Positions 1-37,397 are shown, counted from the first letter of the stretch. The stretch is DNA of 37,397 bases from a virus (IMGVR_UViG_3300035491_000235), one strand, 5' to 3'. Numbers and translations: made by a program. The notes: generated by a model from the sequence alone, not told the origin.

Positions 1-249
1 GCCTAGGGTCAGAGAAGCGCAAATAGCTGTATACTCGCGCGCCATTTTTTCCCTGCCGCATCATCGAGGTCCGGCCTGCTATGTCGAAGAAAGTCGGAAG
101 TATAGGATTTATTTCGCTAGGGTGCCCTTAGCGCACATTATCTATACTTGCTCAGCAAGCGAAGAAACGCGCGCGGGCTACGATGGTCGATAAGCGACAG
201 CCTTTCGAGAATTGAACATGTGCGGCCGCATTACCCAGTACCGCTACCC
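1..249. repeat. Terminal direct repeat copy 1 (identical to 37149..37397). Interpreted as circular-closure overlap or terminal redundancy.
   Basis: Base-by-base comparison shows 1..249 equals 37149..37397. The repeat cuts through the 5' end of the recombinase gene (minus) and the 5' end of the SRAP gene (plus), so it is a permutation overlap and not an att duplication. Confidence 0.9.
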
Positions 250-919
250 GATCGAATACACCGAGGCGCTTGGCCAGCAGGTGATCAGCGGCTTGGATCC
301 GGTACCGATCGGGCGGTACAACGTGCCGCCGCAGTCGCGGGTGCAGCTTCTGCATCAGGATGACGATGGTTTGCGCCTGGAGGGTGTGCGCTGGGGGTAC
401 GCCCCATTCTGGGCGCAGGGCAAAAGGCCGCCGGCGATCAACGCCAGGGTAGAGACTGCCGCGACGAGCAAGTTCTTTCGCGACATCTGGAAGAGCGGCC
501 GCGCGATCGTGCCGGCGGACGGCTGGTACGAATGGAAAAAGGACGAGGCCAACCCGAAGCTCAAGCAGCCCTACTACATCAGGCTGCGCACCGGCGAGCC
601 GATGTACCTGGCGGCGCTTGGGCAGTTTCCCCGCGGCGGCCAGGTCGACCCACGCGAGGGCGATGGCTTCGTGATCATCACCGCCTCGAGCGGCGCCGGC
701 ATGCTCGACATTCACGACCGGCGCCCACTGGTGTTCTCGCCCGAGTGCGCGGCGCATTGGCTCGACCCGGAGCTTTCGCCCACCGAGGCCGAGGACCTGG
801 CGACGGAGCACGGCTTATGCGTGGACGACTTCGACTGGTACCCGGTCGGCCGTGCGGTAGGCAATGTGCGGAACGACGGCCCGCAGCTGATCGAGCGCAT
901 CAGCGACCCGCTGCTCTAG
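218..919 (+). CDS. SOS response-associated peptidase (SRAP / YedK / HMCES family)
   Basis: The track ORF is 212..919. ATG 218 gives the N-terminus M-CGRITQY with the invariant catalytic Cys2. INARVETAATSKFFR, PADGWYEW and HDRRPLVF motifs fit the SRAP fold. Confidence 0.85.
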   Translation: MCGRITQYRYPIEYTEALGQQVISGLDPVPIGRYNVPPQSRVQLLHQDDDGLRLEGVRWGYAPFWAQGKRPPAINARVETAATSKFFRDIWKSGRAIVPADGWYEWKKDEANPKLKQPYYIRLRTGEPMYLAALGQFPRGGQVDPREGDGFVIITASSGAGMLDIHDRRPLVFSPECAAHWLDPELSPTEAEDLATEHGLCVDDFDWYPVGRAVGNVRNDGPQLIERISDPLL

Positions 920-956
920 CCGGCCGTCCGCCGTACAGCACGCGCGATAGACACAC

Positions 957-980
957 GATACTGTATAGAAATACAGTATT
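957..980 (+). promoter_or_regulatory. LexA (SOS) box, core CTGTATAGAAATACAG at 961..976
   Basis: gatACTGTATagaaATACAGTatt is a near-perfect palindrome matching CTGT-N8-ACAG. It ends 8 nt upstream of ATG 984 and overlaps a candidate -10 (TACAGT 972..977), with a candidate -35 at TAGACA 948..953. Confidence 0.75.
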
Positions 981-983
981 CGA

Positions 984-1541
984 ATGGACCTCTCCGACCT
1001 CTATCACAAGCGCCCAAGCCTCGACAGCTGGCTCGCCGCCTGGCATGACGGCCACGCCTGGCGCGGCCTGGCAGACGAGCATTACGCCTACCTGCGGGAC
1101 CGGGCGAACGAGCTGCTGCAGCTCGGGGAGATCACCCTCGAGACGCGCAACCGCATAGCACTGGCAGCGTTCAACAGTTACCTGGCATATGTGCGCCTGA
1201 ACGCCGAGGCGACAGAGCGCTACGCATGGCACTACACCTACCAGGTGTTCGAGGGTGACCAGCTGGTTGCCACGGTCGGGCCGGAGGGCCACCTGTACAG
1301 CCGCGACCGCACGCTGCTGGGCTGCATCAGCGCCGACCCGCTGCATGGCCTGCAGCTCACCCGCAGCGTGGACTATGTCACCCAGGTAATCGGCACGGTC
1401 GATGGGCTGCTGATCACGCGATCAGACGGGCCGCCGTGGCGTCTGGTGCTGAGCAGTACGCCGGCAAAGCGCTGGGCGGCAGAGCCGACCCCGGCGAACT
1501 ATCGACACACCTCATTCGCCGCGAGCAGCTCGCGCTCATAA
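984..1541 (+). CDS. Hypothetical protein (185 aa), putatively LexA-regulated and possibly leaderless
   Basis: Intact ORF with no recognisable family. The LexA box lies immediately upstream and there is no Shine-Dalgarno. The 3' end overlaps the convergent o-spanin gene by 43 nt. Confidence 0.6.
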   Translation: MDLSDLYHKRPSLDSWLAAWHDGHAWRGLADEHYAYLRDRANELLQLGEITLETRNRIALAAFNSYLAYVRLNAEATERYAWHYTYQVFEGDQLVATVGPEGHLYSRDRTLLGCISADPLHGLQLTRSVDYVTQVIGTVDGLLITRSDGPPWRLVLSSTPAKRWAAEPTPANYRHTSFAASSSRS

Positions 1542-1777
1542 CCGATCCGTTGGCGGCGTTCAGCCAGCAACGCCCTGACCTTCACCTCCAGGCTGTCGCT
1601 CTGGCGCAGGGCGGCCGACGCCCATGCCGGAACCGCAACCGGCTCGGTTCGGCACGGCACAGCGACCGGCACCTCGACCCGTACAACGCGCGGCTCAACC
1701 TGCTCGGCCGCCTGGCCGGCACAGCCGGCACAGCCGGCGAGCGCGGCAGCGAGGCACACCAGCAGTAAACGGTTCAT
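1499..1777 (-). CDS. o-spanin (Rz1-like outer-membrane lipoprotein)
   Basis: Signal peptide with lipobox (MNRLLLVCLAAALAG|C) and a Pro/Val-rich mature region. ATGA start/stop overlap with the upstream i-spanin gene. Last gene of the lysis cluster. Confidence 0.75.
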   Translation of the reverse strand: MNRLLLVCLAAALAGCAGCAGQAAEQVEPRVVRVEVPVAVPCRTEPVAVPAWASAALRQSDSLEVKVRALLAERRQRIGYERELLAANEVCR

Positions 1778-2163
1778 AGGCCCAGCTCCTCATCGATTAC
1801 GGCAGCGGCCGCCGCGCAGGCGTCGCCACCGGTGTGCGCCTGCTGCAGTCGATTGGCGGCCAGGTAGTCCTGTTCGGCCTGCTGCCGAGCGCCTGTCTGC
1901 GCCAGACGTGCCGCGTGCTGGCGTTGCTGCGCGGCCGCACGCAGCCCGGCAAGTGCATCGTTCTGGTCGCTTACCTTGGCAAGCAGATTGGTGCGAGTGA
2001 CGCGGCAGGCCGCCAACCGTTCAGCGGCTTTCCGCGACTCCGTCTCCGATGCCTGCAGGTCGCTGCGCAGCGAGCCGATGCGCCACTGCTGGCCACCGGC
2101 GACCACCATCACCACCAGCACCCACCACACCCACGCGGGCAATAACCGTAGCCAGCCGATCAT
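1774..2163 (-). CDS. i-spanin (Rz-like)
   Basis: Track ORF 1774..2322 trimmed to ATG 2163. MIGWLRLLPAWVWWVLVVMVVAG is an N-terminal TMD, followed by an Ala/Gln/Arg-rich coiled-coil region. ATGA overlap with the endolysin stop. Confidence 0.75.
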   Translation of the reverse strand: MIGWLRLLPAWVWWVLVVMVVAGGQQWRIGSLRSDLQASETESRKAAERLAACRVTRTNLLAKVSDQNDALAGLRAAAQQRQHAARLAQTGARQQAEQDYLAANRLQQAHTGGDACAAAAAVIDEELGL

Positions 2164-2792
2164 GCCAACACCTCCTGCCCCGCCTGCCACAACGCCAGGC
2201 GCTGCGCCTGGCCGTGGGTGCCGCCATTGATGCGCCGGGTGATGGCCTCGAACCGGCCGGCGTCGGCCAGTTCGTTGAGGCCGTTGCGGGCCCAGTACCA
2301 GGCGGCGGATAGCGCGGCCCACTCTGGCTGCTCGAGCAGGTCGGGGTAGTCCTCGAGGTTCTGGCCGATGGCCTCGCCGCAGGTGCGGTAATTGTCGCGC
2401 CCGGTGAGCTGGATCAGCCCGCGCCCGCGGTAGCGCCAGCCGTCGCCGCTGGCGGCCGGACCGTTACCCAGGCGATCGGCATAGACGTGGTTGGCGATTG
2501 CTTCGGGCTGTCGCTCCAGCTGGCTCGCCAGGTCGTTCGGCTGTCCACCGGCACCGCGGAACCGGGAAGGCCAAGTGGCGGCGAGACCGGCGGCGCTGTA
2601 GTTGAGGTTCTCCACCAGGCGCCGCAGCTGACCAGACTCATGCCCGACCTGAGCAAGGAATGCCGCGCGACGCACTGGGCTCTCAATGCGATAGCGGTTC
2701 ATCGCTCGATTGAGGGCAGGAACAAAAACGCCCGCGACAGGGCGGGCGTTGGGAAGAATGCGCAGCAGCTGCTGCTCTGTCAGGGGGCGCAT
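2160..2792 (-). CDS. Endolysin, GH19 / chitinase-like (COG3179-type)
   Basis: ATG 2792 is preceded by GGAG (ctGGAGaaaaacATG). FLAQVGHESG and YRGRGLIQLTGRDNY motifs are typical of GH19-type phage lysins. No TMD or SAR segment. Confidence 0.85.
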   Translation of the reverse strand: MRPLTEQQLLRILPNARPVAGVFVPALNRAMNRYRIESPVRRAAFLAQVGHESGQLRRLVENLNYSAAGLAATWPSRFRGAGGQPNDLASQLERQPEAIANHVYADRLGNGPAASGDGWRYRGRGLIQLTGRDNYRTCGEAIGQNLEDYPDLLEQPEWAALSAAWYWARNGLNELADAGRFEAITRRINGGTHGQAQRLALWQAGQEVLA

Positions 2793-2804
2793 GTTTTTCT
2801 CCAG

Positions 2805-2831
2805 GCAAAAAGAAGCCCGCACAAGGCGGGC
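2805..2831 (-). terminator. Rho-independent terminator (minus strand) upstream of the endolysin
   Basis: Minus strand reads GCCCGC-cttgt-GCGGGC followed by TTCTTTTT. Stems are at 2815..2820 and 2826..2831. Confidence 0.7.
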
Positions 2832-2849
2832 CTACGCAATTCGGTGCAG

Positions 2850-3053
2850 CTATTCGAAATCGAGATCTTCAGGACGCAGGCTCCCCACTACATGGCCTTC
2901 CTGATCCAGCAACACACCAATGTTCAAAACCGGGTGGTCGCCGAGATGATCGAATACTCTGGTGACAGTCCCGTAAGGGAGGTATCCGAGCGGTACCTTA
3001 GCGGGGTTGGTTATCCAAACCCGAAGCCCCTTGTGTATGTCATTCAGTTGCAT
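2850..3053 (-). CDS. Small hypothetical protein (67 aa from ATG 3053). The track ORF extends to a TTG at 3134.
   Basis: ATG 3053 is preceded by AGGGG (agctAGGGGcgcgaacATG). GC is visibly lower than in the flanks. No TMD. Divergent from 3134..3553. Confidence 0.5.
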   Translation of the reverse strand: MQLNDIHKGLRVWITNPAKVPLGYLPYGTVTRVFDHLGDHPVLNIGVLLDQEGHVVGSLRPEDLDFE

Positions 3054-3133
3054 GTTCGCGCCCCTAGCTGGCATTGTGCCATCCAATTGTACACGGCAGA
3101 CTGCGGACTCCCATTCATCAAGGAGTGATTGCA

Positions 3134-3553
3134 ATGCAAGGCTACGAAAATGGACACCAAGCGGCCCAGGCGCTGACTACCGCGAATCGTCGGTACAAGA
3201 AAATCGCCGAGTTTTTCTTTGATGTGGCAGAGGGTTGGCGCGGCCTTGCCACTAGGTATCTTGAGACAGCAGTGGTGCTCGACGCTCCCGCCGCGAGCAG
3301 CGTAACCGGCCAGGCGCTGGGCCAGTCATTTACAGCGACAATCTCTCCTCGATTGCTGGATGACGGCGTGATTGGCGTACTCGAGGTTTCCAAACCCAGC
3401 GTGAATGGAAAGCCGGTGTTATGCGCGACCTACCTGTTCAGCTTACATTCCGATGTTCTGCTTGAAGACGGAACGACTGTTGTCGCACTTGATCACCCTG
3501 AACGGGACTTCCTATGGCTCGCACATCTGGTGAAGGCCGTGCTCTCCAAGTGA
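3134..3553 (+). CDS. Hypothetical protein (139 aa), the only plus-strand gene inside the late region
   Basis: Track ORF 3074..3553 trimmed to ATG 3134, which is preceded by AGGAG (AGGAGtgattgcaATG). Lower GC. No family recognised. Confidence 0.6.
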   Translation: MQGYENGHQAAQALTTANRRYKKIAEFFFDVAEGWRGLATRYLETAVVLDAPAASSVTGQALGQSFTATISPRLLDDGVIGVLEVSKPSVNGKPVLCATYLFSLHSDVLLEDGTTVVALDHPERDFLWLAHLVKAVLSK

Positions 3554-4183
3554 TCAGCTGATCGCCTTCCAGGGGTTCACCTCGAAAGTGAAGCCCTTCC
3601 ACTGCTTCGAGGGGTCGGCACTGTAGTCGTCGGCCCAGTCCTCGGGTTCGCCCTTGAAGCCCAGCTGCACGACCAGGGCGCGCGTCGCCGACCACTGCCA
3701 CACCCCATAGAAGCCATAGAAGCGGCGGCCGGTCTTGCGGTGCGTGGCCAGCAGCAGCCGCCAGCCGCCCTTGCCGGGGTCATCCTCGACCGAGGCCTGG
3801 CCCCAATAGCGGTAGTCGCATTCGGTCACGGGGCAGCCGAACAGCGTGGAAAAGCGCGCGTTATTCGCCGGGTTGCGGATCGCCAGCCACCAGAACATCG
3901 ACAGCCAGTGATAAGCGCCCAGGCCGAAAGGCGCGTTCAGGTGCCACCAGCCGCGCTTGTCGCCAGCAGCGCCGTCGCGGTCATTACTCCACAGCCACGC
4001 CCAGGACGGCAGCAGGATCAGCAGCCAGTCGCCAGCGGCCTGGCTGAAGGGTTGCGCCGGGCCTTGCGTCACGCGGAACGGCAGCGCGAGCGGCACGACC
4101 ACCAGGCCGGCCAGGATCATCAGGACGCGCAGCGGCAGCAGGCAGGCCCATTGCAGGGCCGCCCGTAGTACATGGGTCAGCAT
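3554..4183 (-). CDS. Integral membrane protein, Trp-rich, unknown function
   Basis: Track ORF trimmed to ATG 4183 (GAGGaattacccgATG). About 3 hydrophobic segments (LMILAGLVVVPLALPF, WLLILLPSWAWLW, HWLSMFWWLAI), then a soluble W/G/D-rich C-terminal domain. Confidence 0.6.
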   Translation of the reverse strand: MLTHVLRAALQWACLLPLRVLMILAGLVVVPLALPFRVTQGPAQPFSQAAGDWLLILLPSWAWLWSNDRDGAAGDKRGWWHLNAPFGLGAYHWLSMFWWLAIRNPANNARFSTLFGCPVTECDYRYWGQASVEDDPGKGGWRLLLATHRKTGRRFYGFYGVWQWSATRALVVQLGFKGEPEDWADDYSADPSKQWKGFTFEVNPWKAIS

Positions 4184-4204
4184 CGGGTAATTCCTCGGGA
4201 TCAG

Positions 4205-4234
4205 AAACGAAAAGCCCCGCACGGGGCGGGGCTC
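4205..4234 (-). terminator. Rho-independent terminator (minus strand) after the tail fibre assembly gene
   Basis: Stem GCCCCGC (4227..4233) pairs with GCGGGGC (4215..4221) around a 5-nt loop. It is followed on the minus strand by TTTTCGTTTCT. Confidence 0.7.
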
Positions 4235-28759: not shown

Positions 28760-29044
28760 TTAGGCGCGGCGTTCGCCTTGGCGCCGCTCTCCGCGCCTAC
28801 GCTCCGCCTGGCGGCGGTCAGCTTCGAAGCCGGCGCCGCCGCTCTTCTCGGCATAGAGCTTTTCCAGCTCCTTACCGATGCAGTAACGGAGCTCAGCGCC
28901 ATTCAGCGCCCGGAAAACGGTCGGCTGAGTAACGCCAATAGCATCAGCGATGCCTTGCTGGGTCATCCCAGCTTCGATAAGCGCTTTCAGCATTTCAGTG
29001 ATCGAGGGAGTAGTCATGACAAAGGAATGTATCCGGCTACGCAT
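28760..29044 (-). CDS. cro: Cro-like HTH repressor with an Arg-rich C-terminal tail
   Basis: HTH segment MTQQGIADAIGVTQPTVFRAL. Divergent from cI. Start is ATG 29044 (possibly leaderless) or ATG 29017, and neither has a Shine-Dalgarno. The tail reads RRQAERRRGERRQGERRA. Confidence 0.7.
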   Translation of the reverse strand: MRSRIHSFVMTTPSITEMLKALIEAGMTQQGIADAIGVTQPTVFRALNGAELRYCIGKELEKLYAEKSGGAGFEADRRQAERRRGERRQGERRA

Positions 29045-29106
29045 TGAGCAAGATAATACGCATCGGAATTGTCAGCCGCAATACGCTTTGCATAATTCGC
29101 AAAGGA
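29038..29106. promoter_or_regulatory. Divergent immunity promoters and operators (OR-like)
   Basis: Minus-strand PR candidate: TTGCGG (29081..29076), 17-nt spacer, TATTAT (29058..29053). Plus-strand PRM candidate: TTGTCA (29069..29074), 16-nt spacer, CATAAT (29091..29096). There are three (A)TACGC(A/T) repeats, a 25-bp operator at 29039..29063, and an inverted repeat CTTTGC-N7-GCAAAG at 29088..29106. Confidence 0.55.
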
Positions 29107-29117
29107 ATAATCTCGGC

Positions 29118-29780
29118 ATGGCTATTTCGATCGGTCACATCGCCGCCACGCTGGCGGCAAGGCGCGAAAAGCTGGGCTGGAGCGAGACAGAGCTGGCCAA
29201 GAGAGCCGGCCTTAACCAATCCACCGTGCACCGCATCCTCAAGGGTGAGTTCCAGAACCCGCAGATCAATTACATCGAGCGCCTCACTCGCGCCCTTGGG
29301 TTGGACATGGCTGAAGTACTCGGCCTCCGCCAGCCCGATCCGCAAACCCTAGACTCGACCTTGGGACCTGGTCCCGCCTTGCATCAACGCGTACCTCTGA
29401 TTTCATGGGTGCGCGCCGGAGATTTATGCGAGGCGATAGATTTGTTTGAACCTGGCTTTGCCGATGACTGGCTGGACTGCCCTTTTCCCCATAGCCCCTC
29501 CGCCTACTGCCTAGAGGTCCGAGGGCTGAGCATGTCCCCAGAGTACAGAACCGGGGAGATTCTTCTCGTGGAGCCCGAGCTGGTCCCGATGCACAACGAT
29601 GACGTTGTCGTACGCACTCCGGATGGCCAGGTAACGTTCAAGCGCTTGCAGATAACCGAGGACGGCACATACCTTCTGGCCTTGAACCCAGAGTTTCCAA
29701 ACCGGATTCTGCACATGCCAGAACACACGAGCTTCTGCGGCGTAGTGACTGGCTCGTGGATAAAGCGGAAGCGGCGATAG
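29118..29780 (+). CDS. cI: CI-type repressor (HTH_XRE + S24 LexA-like autopeptidase)
   Basis: Track ORF trimmed to ATG 29118. HTH segment LGWSETELAKRAGLNQSTVHRILKG. The S24 domain has GLSMSP (Ser nucleophile) and FKRL (Lys). Confidence 0.85.
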   Translation: MAISIGHIAATLAARREKLGWSETELAKRAGLNQSTVHRILKGEFQNPQINYIERLTRALGLDMAEVLGLRQPDPQTLDSTLGPGPALHQRVPLISWVRAGDLCEAIDLFEPGFADDWLDCPFPHSPSAYCLEVRGLSMSPEYRTGEILLVEPELVPMHNDDVVVRTPDGQVTFKRLQITEDGTYLLALNPEFPNRILHMPEHTSFCGVVTGSWIKRKRR

Positions 29781-29784
29781 CTCA

Positions 29785-30633
29785 CTAAAACAACCAGTAA
29801 ACAACCAGAGCTACCAATACGACCGGGAACGCCAAGCCGACCAAGAAAGTTTTGACGAGCCGTCGCGCCGCCTGCTCCTGCATGGCGGCAACGCCGTCCT
29901 GACTGATAGCCCCTGCAGGGGACACGTCGGCATCGAATACCTCGGCCAGCACCACCGGCACCGGCCCGCTGGCATAGCTCAAAACCTTCTTGAAGCTCGC
30001 GCTATGGCTGCAGCCGCGATCCAGCAACGGGCCTATATCGCGGGCAAACTCTTCAGGTACGTAGCCGACGCAAGAGCCATTTTCCGTCAGGACCTTGGTT
30101 GCATACCTGCTGTGCTTATTGTCTGACTCACGAAGTAAAAAAGCGCGCTCACCCGCCTGCACTTCGTCTTCTATGATTTCCGCACGGCCATCATGGCGGG
30201 TCCCCGCAACCATAAAATCCGAGCGAAAGAGAGGTCTAAGCTTGGCCTGTTCAGCCTTATAGGCCGCCTTTTCAGCCGACGCTGCGGCTTTTGCTGCCGC
30301 CTTATCCTCGTGTTCGACCTGCCGGCGAAGTAAGCCTGCGAACTTCCTATCTGCTGGCGGCAGCACAGCCTCAACGGCCTTTGCGACCGAAAGCCGCTCT
30401 TCTGCGGTGATGACTCCATCCGCCAGCACACGCTCCAGTGTTGCCGCCAGGAACCTAACAGCAGGTAGCTCAGCGGCGGTGTTCCGATCAATCCAAGCTC
30501 GCAAGGCATGAATCTCTTCATCAGCAACCCGCCCATCGGCCGTAATTGACTGGCAGATGCTTAGTAGCTCTAGGCCCACCTCGGTGCCAAGCTGTTTCTT
30601 TGTTAACGAAGTTCGCGACTTGGTGGCTTCCAT
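29785..30633 (-). CDS. Tail-anchored membrane protein with a TerB-like N-terminal domain and a HIRAN domain
   Basis: 282 aa. The N-terminus (ADGRVADEEIHALRAWI...GVITAEERLSVAKAVEAVL) is TerB-like. The HIRAN-like core is FMVAGTRHDGRAEIIEDEVQAGERAFLLRESDNKHSRYATKVLTENGSCVGYVPEEFARDIGPLLDRG. The C-terminal TMD is LVGLAFPVVLVALVVYWLF. GC is lower than in the neighbours, and the gene is convergent on cI with a 4-bp gap. Confidence 0.7.
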   Translation of the reverse strand: MEATKSRTSLTKKQLGTEVGLELLSICQSITADGRVADEEIHALRAWIDRNTAAELPAVRFLAATLERVLADGVITAEERLSVAKAVEAVLPPADRKFAGLLRRQVEHEDKAAAKAAASAEKAAYKAEQAKLRPLFRSDFMVAGTRHDGRAEIIEDEVQAGERAFLLRESDNKHSRYATKVLTENGSCVGYVPEEFARDIGPLLDRGCSHSASFKKVLSYASGPVPVVLAEVFDADVSPAGAISQDGVAAMQEQAARRLVKTFLVGLAFPVVLVALVVYWLF

Positions 30634-35586: not shown

Positions 35587-37212
35587 TCACGCGTGGCGGT
35601 CGCGGCTCGCCTTCCAGGCGCCCGACCGCCGATCCACCTCAAGCATCACCCGCTGCCCCGCCCGTGACACCAGCATTACCGCAATGGTTTTGCTTTTCGG
35701 CTCCGGCACGATTCCCCGCATGTACACCACGATCCGGCTGAACGTATCGAGCACCAGTTGCCGCAGCTGCTCACGCGCTGGGCTGTAGATATCGGCCGAA
35801 TCGGCCGCCAGCTGCTGCCACTGCTCGGCGGCCGCCGGGGTATGGCCCAGGCCCTGCACGGCCTGCTCACGCTCGAGCTGCTCCGCCTCGGCTTGCAAAC
35901 GTTGCAGCTCGGCCTCCAGCTCGCGCGCTTTGCGCACGAACGCCAGCGGCGCCGCCCCGCCGTCGTCGGCTAGCAGCGCCTCCGTCACCCGAGCGAGCTG
36001 CCGCTCGACATCCGCCTGCTGCCTACGGCACGCCTGCAGGCGCTGCTGCAGCTGCCGGCCATCGTCGGCCGGCTCCAGCAGGCGCGTCAGGTTGAACTGG
36101 TCCGAGCAGTACGCCAGCACGGCCCGCTCAACGGGCACAACGCTGCAGCTCGCCGCCTTGCAGCCCGTCCCGCTGCCGTAGGAGGTGCAGTGCAGCCGGC
36201 GGTGGCCATCGGCCAGAGTGCCGTCCGCCTTCATCCGGCTGACCAGGTTCTGCGCCACCACGGCGGTACCGCAGTAGCCGCACCAGGTGATGCCGATGCC
36301 AGTGACGATACCCACGATGTCACTCGCCCCACGCCGCCCGTGCCGCGTCTCGGCTGCCGCCTGTAGCTCGTGGAATTCATCGTCGCTGAGCACACGCGGG
36401 TAGTAGTCCTCGAGCAGGTAGTCCTCGCCGTCCACGCTCAGCCGCTTGGCGCCGCGCAGCGCCGGCAGCTTCACCAGGCGGTACAGCTGCTGGCCAGCCA
36501 GGCCCCAGTCGCTCAACGCATAGCCACGCTCGGCCAGCTTGCGCACGGCCCGCGTCGCCCCAACACCCTGCTTGTAGAGCTCCAGCGCGTAACGCACCGC
36601 CTCCACCCGCTCGGGAATCAGCTGCCACGCCTGGCCGTCCCAGTGCAGCCACTGCGGATCCTTGCCGTTGCGCACCAGCCCCCGGTAGGTGCCGGCTACC
36701 CAGCCTTCGCACTGCTTGCGGATCGCGGCCTTTACGCGCTTGCTTTTGGTGTCGCTCTCCTCGTGCGCGCGGATCATCACCAGCAGGCTATAGACCAGGT
36801 CCATCGGCTGCGCCTTGAGCTGCGCCCGGTTGTACTCACGCCCGTCGCTGGCCGTCACCACGGTGATGCCCGCGTTGATGATCTGCGCCAACTGCGCCTG
36901 CGCCTGTATCGGCTCCGCCCGGCTCAGCCGGTCCAGCCCCTCGACGATCAGCACCGAGCCATCGGGAATGCGCCCCTCGTCCACGGCCTTGAGAAACGTA
37001 CCCAGCGCGCCCTGCTTCACATGCCGCTGGTGATACGCCGACAGCCCCTCGTCGCGCAGCGAAAGCGACTCATCGAGCACCAGCCCCCGCTCCGCGGCCC
37101 AGCGCTGCGCATACTGCAACTGACGATCGGCGCTATGTCCCGCCGCTTGCCTAGGGTCAGAGAAGCGCAAATAGCTGTATACTCGCGCGCCATTTTTTCC
37201 CTGCCGCATCAT
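35587..37212 (-). CDS. Large serine recombinase (phage integrase)
   Basis: 541 aa. The N-terminal resolvase domain (VYSYLRFSDPRQ) carries the catalytic Ser. A recombinase domain follows, then a Cys-rich zinc ribbon (WCGYCG...LHCTSYGSGTGC) and a C-terminal coiled coil. Confidence 0.85.
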   Translation of the reverse strand: MMRQGKNGARVYSYLRFSDPRQAAGHSADRQLQYAQRWAAERGLVLDESLSLRDEGLSAYHQRHVKQGALGTFLKAVDEGRIPDGSVLIVEGLDRLSRAEPIQAQAQLAQIINAGITVVTASDGREYNRAQLKAQPMDLVYSLLVMIRAHEESDTKSKRVKAAIRKQCEGWVAGTYRGLVRNGKDPQWLHWDGQAWQLIPERVEAVRYALELYKQGVGATRAVRKLAERGYALSDWGLAGQQLYRLVKLPALRGAKRLSVDGEDYLLEDYYPRVLSDDEFHELQAAAETRHGRRGASDIVGIVTGIGITWCGYCGTAVVAQNLVSRMKADGTLADGHRRLHCTSYGSGTGCKAASCSVVPVERAVLAYCSDQFNLTRLLEPADDGRQLQQRLQACRRQQADVERQLARVTEALLADDGGAAPLAFVRKARELEAELQRLQAEAEQLEREQAVQGLGHTPAAAEQWQQLAADSADIYSPAREQLRQLVLDTFSRIVVYMRGIVPEPKSKTIAVMLVSRAGQRVMLEVDRRSGAWKASRDRHA

Positions 37213-37397
37213 CGAGGTCCGGCCTGCTATGTCGAAGAAAGTCGGAAGTATAGGATTTATTTCGCTAGGGTGCCCTTAGCGCACATTATCTATACTTGCT
37301 CAGCAAGCGAAGAAACGCGCGCGGGCTACGATGGTCGATAAGCGACAGCCTTTCGAGAATTGAACATGTGCGGCCGCATTACCCAGTACCGCTACCC
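37149..37397. repeat. Terminal direct repeat copy 2 (identical to 1..249)
   Basis: Same comparison as copy 1. It contains recombinase codons 1-21 (37212..37149) and the SRAP start (ATG 37366). Confidence 0.9.

Follow-up and report, generated by a model that had tools for sequence, protein, structure and literature searches.

Control of prophage genes by the host repressor LexA is known mainly as a route to induction that runs through antirepressors, as with Tum of coliphage 186 and in the Gifsy phages. The Gifsy/Fels-type Salmonella prophages and N15 (AntC) have LexA-controlled antirepressors, and the CI repressor of 186 has no S24 domain. Leaderless translation of a phage regulatory gene is known from lambda, where the cI mRNA transcribed from PRM is leaderless. 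Here we analysed the viral sequence IMGVR_UViG_3300035491_000235, hereafter the window (the whole stretch of 37,397 nt, one strand, positions counted from its first letter), in which a predicted LexA (SOS) operator directly precedes a gene coding for a 185-aa protein of an uncharacterised Pseudomonas-phage family.

Compared with the Gifsy/Fels-type prophages and N15 AntC, the locus would share the silencing by LexA of a prophage accessory gene away from the immunity region, but those genes serve repressors without self-cleavage, whereas the phages checked here have an S24-type CI. As for lambda cI at PRM, the -10 element lies 6-7 nt from the ATG, no Shine-Dalgarno is present and transcription is predicted to start at the AUG; the differences are that host LexA would occlude the promoter here, which is not run by a phage repressor, and that members of other clades of the 185-aa family (F116, L034) have GGAG and a leader of ~34 nt. 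The SOS operon of 186 (p95, LexA box, tum, orf97; NC_001317) has a similar layout, in which a LexA operator covers the -10 of a dedicated promoter located outside the immunity region and provides a LexA-dependent input apart from the main lytic promoters, and the window phage also carries a 186-type CII. In contrast, Tum is a DinI-domain protein to which the window protein is unrelated, the CI of the window is self-cleaving, and the window gene lacks a Shine-Dalgarno and, as predicted, a leader. We also considered the 186 operon as a positional twin of the locus with orf97 as an SRAP gene, and rejected this since orf97 is not an SRAP.

Predicted LexA operator and promoter of the 185-aa gene

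The sequence at 957-980 is gatACTGTATagaaATACAGTatt, and the 20-mer TACTGTATAGAAATACAGTA within it agreed with the E. coli-type LexA consensus at 18/20 positions, with 2 mismatches. It was the sole site of the window with 3 mismatches or fewer, none of 100 dinucleotide-preserving shuffles produced any such site, and the second-best 20-mer reached 12/20. The element corresponds to the gammaproteobacterial SOS pattern (a 16-bp CTGT-N8-ACAG palindrome with an AT-rich centre, near TACTGTATATATATACAGTA) and agrees at 14/16 positions with the P. aeruginosa LexA consensus CTG-TATAA-ATATA-CAG quoted in PMC7427096. Its arms (958-966 and 971-979) are inverted repeats of each other over 9 bp without a mismatch and flank a 4-nt non-palindromic centre. 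The bare CTGT-N8-ACAG pattern occurs once in the window, at 961-976, for a chance expectation of 0.29, and is by itself weak evidence. An independent consensus scan of 1-3200 returned a single + strand promoter-like site, TAGACA-18 nt-TACAGT (948-977), and the operator overlaps the -10 of this promoter, predicted by consensus match only, as is typical of SOS promoters. As RNA, the palindrome would form a 9-bp hairpin which, because no U-run follows it, is not a terminator; an Rfam scan of 1-3000 found no family.

Related loci (L-numbers) were taken from assemblies, IMG/VR and GenBank phages, and their upstream DNA was scanned for LexA boxes. A box was present directly upstream of the family gene in 75 of the 79 loci (31/35, plus 44/44 further IMG/VR loci with upstream DNA included), among them F116 gp69 and loci whose proteins are only 23-33% identical, and in nearly every locus of 2-12 kb no other box reached 15/20. 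The initial annotation had named loss of the box in relatives that retain the gene as an observation that would speak against regulation; such losses were looked for, and the outcome speaks in favour of regulation, the operator being kept before the orthologues while the flanks diverged until unrelated. In the ~75%-identical relatives (L001-L005, L015, L016) both arms and both promoter hexamers were kept, as was the spacing of 6 nt to the ATG, and the box centre and the remaining intergenic spacer had changed. Between the window and L001, the arms were identical despite a synonymous divergence (dS) of ~0.8 and a diverged spacer. TAGACA, TAGACT or TGGACA was found at the same distance in L001, L016, L012, L006 and L021, with unrelated upstream DNA; L006/L021 and L012 combine quite different upstream sequences with the same box and promoter geometry. 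A -10 inside the box, at 6-7 nt from the ATG, occurs in this way behind three unrelated upstream sequences, and also in L032 and L037.

More distant members carry the box in other arrangements. In the F116 group (33% identity), ACTG[T/G]ATATTCATACAG is followed by CATAAT, a ~34-nt leader and a GGAG Shine-Dalgarno, an arrangement observed in 10/10 GenBank phages examined and in the 44/44 further IMG/VR loci. The most distant proteins (P0008, P0010, P0011, P0012, P0014 and P0015, 23-43% identity) have the box 7-33 nt before the corrected start. Two kinds of exception were found. In L007-L009 the box lies 138 nt upstream, abutting a divergent Dam-type methylase gene, and the family gene has a GGAGG Shine-Dalgarno. 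In L017 the family gene is 5'-truncated and frameshifted and the locus has its sole box in the interval separating SRAP from a divergent umuD-like gene, so that the single loss of the box coincides with decay of the gene. The deposited start of one member (P0004, Ectopseudomonas hydrolytica ACRS3X_16995, L006 6001-6546) was found to be 12 codons too early: its extra residues DKNTVCKYSIC are the translated LexA box, and the conserved start is at L006 6037, 7 nt past the box.

From these features, we strongly infer that 959-978 is an operator for host LexA placed across the -10 and the start point of a sigma-70-type promoter, and the regulatory claim as a whole, a LexA-gated promoter, is in our view very probably correct. 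The near-perfect LexA box and the TAGACA/TACAGT promoter described in the initial annotation were thus both recovered; the position that it gave for the box was right, and the distance of 8 nt to the start codon is corrected to 7 nt (977-983) between the core and ATG 984.

No GGAG, GAGG or AGGA and no Shine-Dalgarno-like purine run occurs in the 25 nt preceding ATG 984 (tactgtatagaaatacagtattcga), in line with the lack of a Shine-Dalgarno noted initially. A survey of the window genes gave ~23/33 with a 4-nt Shine-Dalgarno motif, a qualitative figure only since spurious high-GC open reading frames (ORFs) contaminate it. Because the -10 hexamer sits 6 nt before the ATG, close to the ~7 nt of leaderless genes, and no Shine-Dalgarno is present, transcription is predicted to begin at A984 or at an adjacent position and the mRNA is probably leaderless, judging from this geometry, which also favours the earlier suggestion of a LexA-occluded, possibly leaderless message. 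The same geometry (-10 in the box, 6-7 nt to the ATG, no Shine-Dalgarno) is shared by the window clade, L006/L021, L012, L032 and L037 and is not family-wide, F116 and L034 having leaders. The start codon itself is fixed by the conservation of the N-terminus, which in L007 follows a canonical GGAGG Shine-Dalgarno.

The protein family, its neighbours and the phage genome

Table 1 Coordinates of the operator, the promoter elements and the genes discussed in the text.
Feature	Position in window	Strand	Remarks
-35-like hexamer TAGACA	948-953	+	Promoter consensus scan; predicted LexA-controlled promoter
Putative LexA (SOS) operator TACTGTATAGAAATACAGTA	959-978	none	Core CTGT-N8-ACAG at 961-976; kept in 75/79 loci
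-10-like hexamer TACAGT	972-977	+	Inside right arm of LexA box; 6 nt to ATG
185-aa gene, uncharacterised Pseudomonas-phage family phrog_8717	984-1541	+	F116 gp69 and H66_0070 are also members
SRAP/YedK-type gene, Met-Cys-Gly-Arg N-terminus	218-919	+	PF02586, E 3e-49; upstream, outside LexA box
o-spanin-like lipoprotein, LAGC lipobox	1499-1777	-	Last gene of convergent lysis cassette; 43-nt overlap with 185-aa gene
Rz-like gene			Lysis cassette, between lipoprotein and endolysin
GH19 endolysin	2160-2822		Convergent lysis cassette
CI repressor, helix-turn-helix + Peptidase_S24	28950-29780	+	E 5e-21; first, direct SOS input of the phage
Serine recombinase	35587-37212	-	Divergent neighbour of SRAP, ~150 bp apart on the circle

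The ORF 984-1541 is a real gene under purifying selection, with an in-frame GC content at third codon positions of 0.84 and a ratio of nonsynonymous to synonymous divergence (dN/dS) of 0.20-0.40 against relatives at dS 0.8-1.4. Its product matched phrog_8717, a family of unknown function, with an E-value of 1.2e-16 (residues 12-150 against profile positions 13-152 of 170). A profile search retrieved 16 representatives among 1.84 billion representative proteins, and a scan of genome contigs for the family returned one locus only. By tblastn the gene was found in 39 Pseudomonas phage records, every one annotated as hypothetical, including F116 (gp69), H66 (H66_0070), LKA5, phiC725A, PA8, Presto, Lodos, Fyn8, Haddon and JBD90. 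All members came from phages and prophages of the Pseudomonas group or from short metagenome contigs, and an identical 169-aa protein (P0002) occurs in one myovirus-type and one siphovirus-type prophage. A literature search found no description of the family or of its LexA box.

The 185-aa protein and F116 gp69 had no match in Pfam, NCBIfam or PADLOC, 15 family members compared with Pfam at E-values up to 5 gave scattered single matches only, and a PDB sequence-profile search with the 185-aa protein returned nothing significant (best E 0.04), in agreement with the initial annotation, which had recognised no family. The AlphaFold model, built from a 15-sequence alignment, had a predicted local distance difference test (pLDDT) score of 90.4 and a predicted template modelling score (pTM) of 0.78. 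It consists of an N-terminal three-helix domain (~11-76) and an eight-strand beta domain (86-156), a predicted soluble two-domain fold with no membrane segment and no signal peptide; the C-terminal ~20 residues are an extension without counterpart in relatives and are disordered in the model. Foldseek comparison of this model with the PDB gave nothing significant (best E 0.037, template modelling score 0.26-0.33, a DUF4909 protein), and an earlier model with a pLDDT of 71 had no match in the PDB or BFVD. We describe the predicted two-domain fold as new.

SRAP/YedK proteins shield abasic sites. The SRAP gene of the window covers positions 1-214 of the 214 of PF02586 and its product starts with MCGRITQY, with the Cys at residue 2; the 185-aa protein is itself not an SRAP. 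Such a gene recurs beside the family gene, upstream of it in the window clade, L038 and L039, and downstream in apparent operons in L006, L012, L018, L021, L034-36, F116, Presto, Fyn8 and E220. The downstream copies follow after gaps of 2 to ~40 nt (L034-36, L006, Fyn8) or behind a 30-codon ORF (F116, Presto, E220), and Lodos retains a fragment. SRAP was present in 40/78 IMG/VR loci (33 full-length genes and 7 fragments), and its adjacency, in either gene order, extends across the deepest splits of the family. Where SRAP is upstream the box lies between the two genes, and where it is downstream SRAP follows behind the box. Because the box precedes the family gene in both orders, this gene would always be the one under LexA. 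SRAP has been described as an SOS-associated domain, noted in prophages, with UmuDC, ImuA-ImuB-DnaE2, DinB and Ku/ligase as partners, among which the 185-aa family does not figure (Aravind et al. 2013, PMC3765255). As in those neighbourhoods, SRAP is found here repeatedly beside SOS genes, often apparently co-transcribed behind a LexA box; the difference is that here the family gene, not SRAP, always carries the box.

Other genes linked to DNA damage sometimes adjoin. Second strong LexA boxes (L038 4982-5001 and L039 5857-5876) lie directly before DUF1654 (PF07867) genes adjoining the family gene. DUF1654 is important for cisplatin resistance in Pseudomonas fluorescens and was predicted to be LexA-regulated (Price et al., bioRxiv 10.1101/072470). 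It resembles the 185-aa family in being a small Pseudomonas protein of unknown mechanism whose gene has its own LexA box, but it is also chromosomal, whereas the family is confined to prophages, phages and short metagenome contigs, and no profile similarity was found between the two (hhalign probability 0.2). In L017 (1245-3361), a umuD-like S24 gene (1245-1670, - strand) is divergent from a LexA-boxed SRAP gene (1771-2475), downstream of which lies the decayed family gene, 95% identical to that of the window. LexA boxes also abut the starts of Dam-type methylase genes (PF02086) at L007 5845-5864 (also in L008 and L009) and at 3662-3681 of L023 (Lodos), which suggests, from box position, that Pseudomonas prophages carry SOS-controlled phage methylases. 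In L007-9 the family gene is near an AcrIF11-type gene.

All loci have the family gene at an accessory site. Mostly it stands first or second within the prophage end, with att/int on one side and the distal end of the lysis cassette on the other, and this applies to phages of myovirus, siphovirus and podovirus type, whether their integrase is of the serine or the tyrosine kind. In L037-L039, by contrast, cI is located a few genes upstream of it. The product was also considered as a recombination directionality factor, which is unlikely since members accompany integrases of either kind, serine and tyrosine. The module formed by SRAP, box and family gene is common to the serine-recombinase phage of the window and to the tRNA-3'-end prophages L001 and L002. 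Homology between L001 5000-5233 and window 60-217 starts only at the SRAP start codon, so that the module appears to move between integration systems.

Positions 1-249 of the window are identical to 37149-37397 (249 bp), so the window is a complete circularly permuted phage genome of 37,148 bp without host flanks. The order on the circle is serine recombinase, SRAP, LexA box, 185-aa gene, convergent lysis cassette, then tail-fibre and baseplate genes. The ~150-bp spacer at 65-217 probably holds attP; a palindrome, CTTGCTCAGCAAG, is located within it near 160-172. The 3' end of the 185-aa gene overlaps the o-spanin-like gene at 1499-1541, and the convergent layout with the lysis cassette recurs in L001-L005, F116 and others. 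In the late region, which is on the minus strand, we also observed two ORFs without a family match, one of 159 aa on the + strand (3074-3553) and a small one on the - strand (2850-3134); a DUF7338 gene (3554-4222) adjoins them, the island is also present in L001 and L002, and 2850-3553 may be a second cargo island.

The CI of the window carries the Ala-Gly, GLSMSP (Ser) and FKRL (Lys) motifs of its S24 domain and the CII matched PF06892, which bears out the self-cleaving CI and the 186-type CII reported initially. As listed, the cI ORF includes ~55 residues N-terminal to the helix-turn-helix (28950-29114), and its true start is probably the Met at ~29115 (MAISIGHIAATL...). An S24-type CI was present in 5/5 phages with a visible immunity region (the window, H66, L037, L038 and L039), and the CIs of the window and H66, two phages which both carry the family, have no detectable sequence similarity. 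Directly downstream of cI and convergent with it lies a gene for a 282-aa HIRAN-domain protein (29785-30633, - strand; PF08797, E 5e-13). HIRAN domains bind 3' DNA ends at stalled forks, and this gene is a possible further damage-sensing accessory gene. Phage H66 (L031 9507-9716, - strand) and F116-like phages encode a 69-aa protein, H66_0014, formed of a LexA-type DNA-binding domain only, a possible competitor for the same LexA boxes; the window has no homologue of it.

Proposed role and competing explanations

In the undamaged lysogen, host LexA would block the promoter at 948-977, and upon DNA damage the RecA-stimulated cleavage of LexA would free it without involvement of the phage CI. Because LexA is cleaved more readily than repressors of the lambda CI type, the gene could be switched on at damage levels too low for prophage induction, which is the logic of a conversion gene. 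The resulting mRNA, with its 5' end at the A of ATG 984 or directly beside it, would be leaderless. Where SRAP is upstream, such a start would plausibly serve as insulation: transcripts reading through from SRAP should be translated poorly, because the internal AUG has no Shine-Dalgarno and adjoins the hairpin. The family would be a mobile, LexA-gated cargo found at various accessory sites, either next to att and the end of the lysis cassette or behind cI. Its product would handle damaged or single-stranded DNA, with SRAP or alongside it. The gene would thus be one of lysogenic conversion, conferring damage tolerance and, once the prophage is induced, benefiting the phage genome as well.

A damage-handling role is proposed because SRAP/YedK is often paired with the gene and other LexA-boxed damage genes sometimes adjoin it; coming from the neighbourhood only, this assignment of function is tentative and we give it somewhat less than an even chance. 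The combined statement, a LexA-gated mobile cargo gene for DNA-damage tolerance, comes close to an even chance without reaching it. A bolder version appears rather unlikely: the family would be an obligatorily LexA-controlled, so far unrecognised partner of SRAP/YedK and a new component of the pathway by which abasic sites and DNA-protein crosslinks in single-stranded DNA are shielded or resolved, and temperate Pseudomonas phages would spread the two genes as a damage-tolerance cassette that raises lysogen survival when damage is too slight for induction.

Several observations weigh against a damage-handling function. About half of the family members have no SRAP neighbour, and PG1 and pAN have SRAP but not the family gene, so the pairing could reflect a shared niche for SOS cargo and not a joint function. 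An upstream SRAP gene lies outside the LexA box, and the two genes would therefore not always be co-regulated. The protein offers no biochemical clue, the Pfam, NCBIfam, PADLOC, PDB and Foldseek searches being empty, and has no obvious catalytic or DNA-binding motif. The family also diverges much faster than SRAP (31% against 83% identity between L038 and L039), which looks more like contact with a variable partner than like a core repair factor.

In a second explanation, the product is an SOS-gated effector of host manipulation or competition without a repair role, for instance a block of cell division, of lysis by pyocins or other prophages, of superinfection or of defence, with SRAP merely sharing its slot. 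The classic moron positions that the gene takes in numerous unrelated phages (att, end of the lysis cassette), its rapid divergence, its restriction to the Pseudomonas group, the nearby AcrIF11-type gene and the lack of SRAP in half of the loci would all fit such an effector. However, PADLOC gave no match, the modelled protein is predicted to be soluble, with two domains and neither membrane segment nor signal peptide, and a shared slot does not easily explain why SRAP adjoins the gene in both orders across the deepest splits; we regard this effector as improbable, though worth weighing.

The initial annotation had proposed an SOS-induced effector and named an antirepressor, an induction helper or a modulator of host damage responses, with 186 Tum as the analogy. 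The last of these, a modulator of damage responses, fits best with the SRAP/YedK, DUF1654, umuD and Dam-type neighbours, and a second SOS input independent of CI, as was also claimed, is consistent with a LexA box kept over the promoter of a real gene. An antirepressor or induction helper would bind CI or speed lytic commitment and so reinforce the self-cleavage of CI. It could account for the p95-tum-like placement of a LexA box over a -10 outside the immunity region, for the 186-type CII, for the fast evolution expected of a protein in contact with a variable repressor, and for the gene lying a few genes downstream of cI in L037-L039. Homology to Tum was rejected: Tum matches PF06183 at an E-value of 2e-17, whereas the 185-aa protein has no Pfam match, and BLASTP between the two gave an E-value of 0.087 over 19 residues. 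The protein thus has no Tum similarity and no DinI domain, and the CIs of all 5 phages examined have an intact S24 domain, different from the repressors without self-cleavage of Tum-type systems, so that no antirepressor is needed and the idea is unsupported. Moreover, the family accompanies CIs as dissimilar as those of the window and H66, the identical P0002 serves two prophage types, and the consistent neighbours are DNA-damage genes and not immunity genes. These points remove both the need for an induction-related role and the analogy that suggested it; we do not think that the product inactivates CI, and consider the antirepressor unlikely.

It is also conceivable that the transcript, and not the protein, is the main product, reading as antisense into the convergent lysis cassette and tuning lysis timing after damage. 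The gene abuts or overlaps a convergent o-spanin gene in most att-proximal loci (by 43 nt in the window), and the scan found no terminator-like site on the + strand between 1541 and the lysis genes. The protein is, on the other hand, under purifying selection and conserved down to 23% identity, the LexA box is kept in L037-L039, where the gene is away from the lysis cassette, and SRAP stands between the gene and the lysis genes in many loci, which makes an antisense function very unlikely. That the palindrome is a chance or vestigial match without regulatory role is the least credible explanation, close to negligible, since the bare pattern is indeed expected 0.29 times per window but the full 20-mer was absent from the 100 shuffles, the box overlaps the promoter and recurs across unrelated flanks in 75/79 loci, and the sole box-less relative (L017) is a frameshifted pseudogene.

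Implications for temperate Pseudomonas phages

LexA-controlled prophage genes as such are known; what is new here is that the controlled gene belongs to a family without a recognisable fold, in phages with an S24-type CI, and is recurrently coupled to SRAP. The LexA device is attached with unusual constancy to this family in phages that have no need of an antirepressor. On the practical side, the start codon of P0004 is flagged as mis-annotated, and the locus offers a compact, conserved, LexA-controlled promoter, predicted to be leaderless.

To our knowledge, the partners of SRAP/YedK in bacteria are still poorly defined. If the link with SRAP is functional, the family would offer a way into the regulation or completion of SRAP-type lesion shielding in bacteria; the signal from the comparison of loci is unusually clean and provides a testable lead on SRAP biology, the mechanism being deduced. 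If the damage-tolerance reading is true, temperate Pseudomonas phages, including the common F116-group prophages of P. aeruginosa, would carry SOS-tuned damage-tolerance cargo, with a bearing on survival under fluoroquinolones and on mutagenesis.

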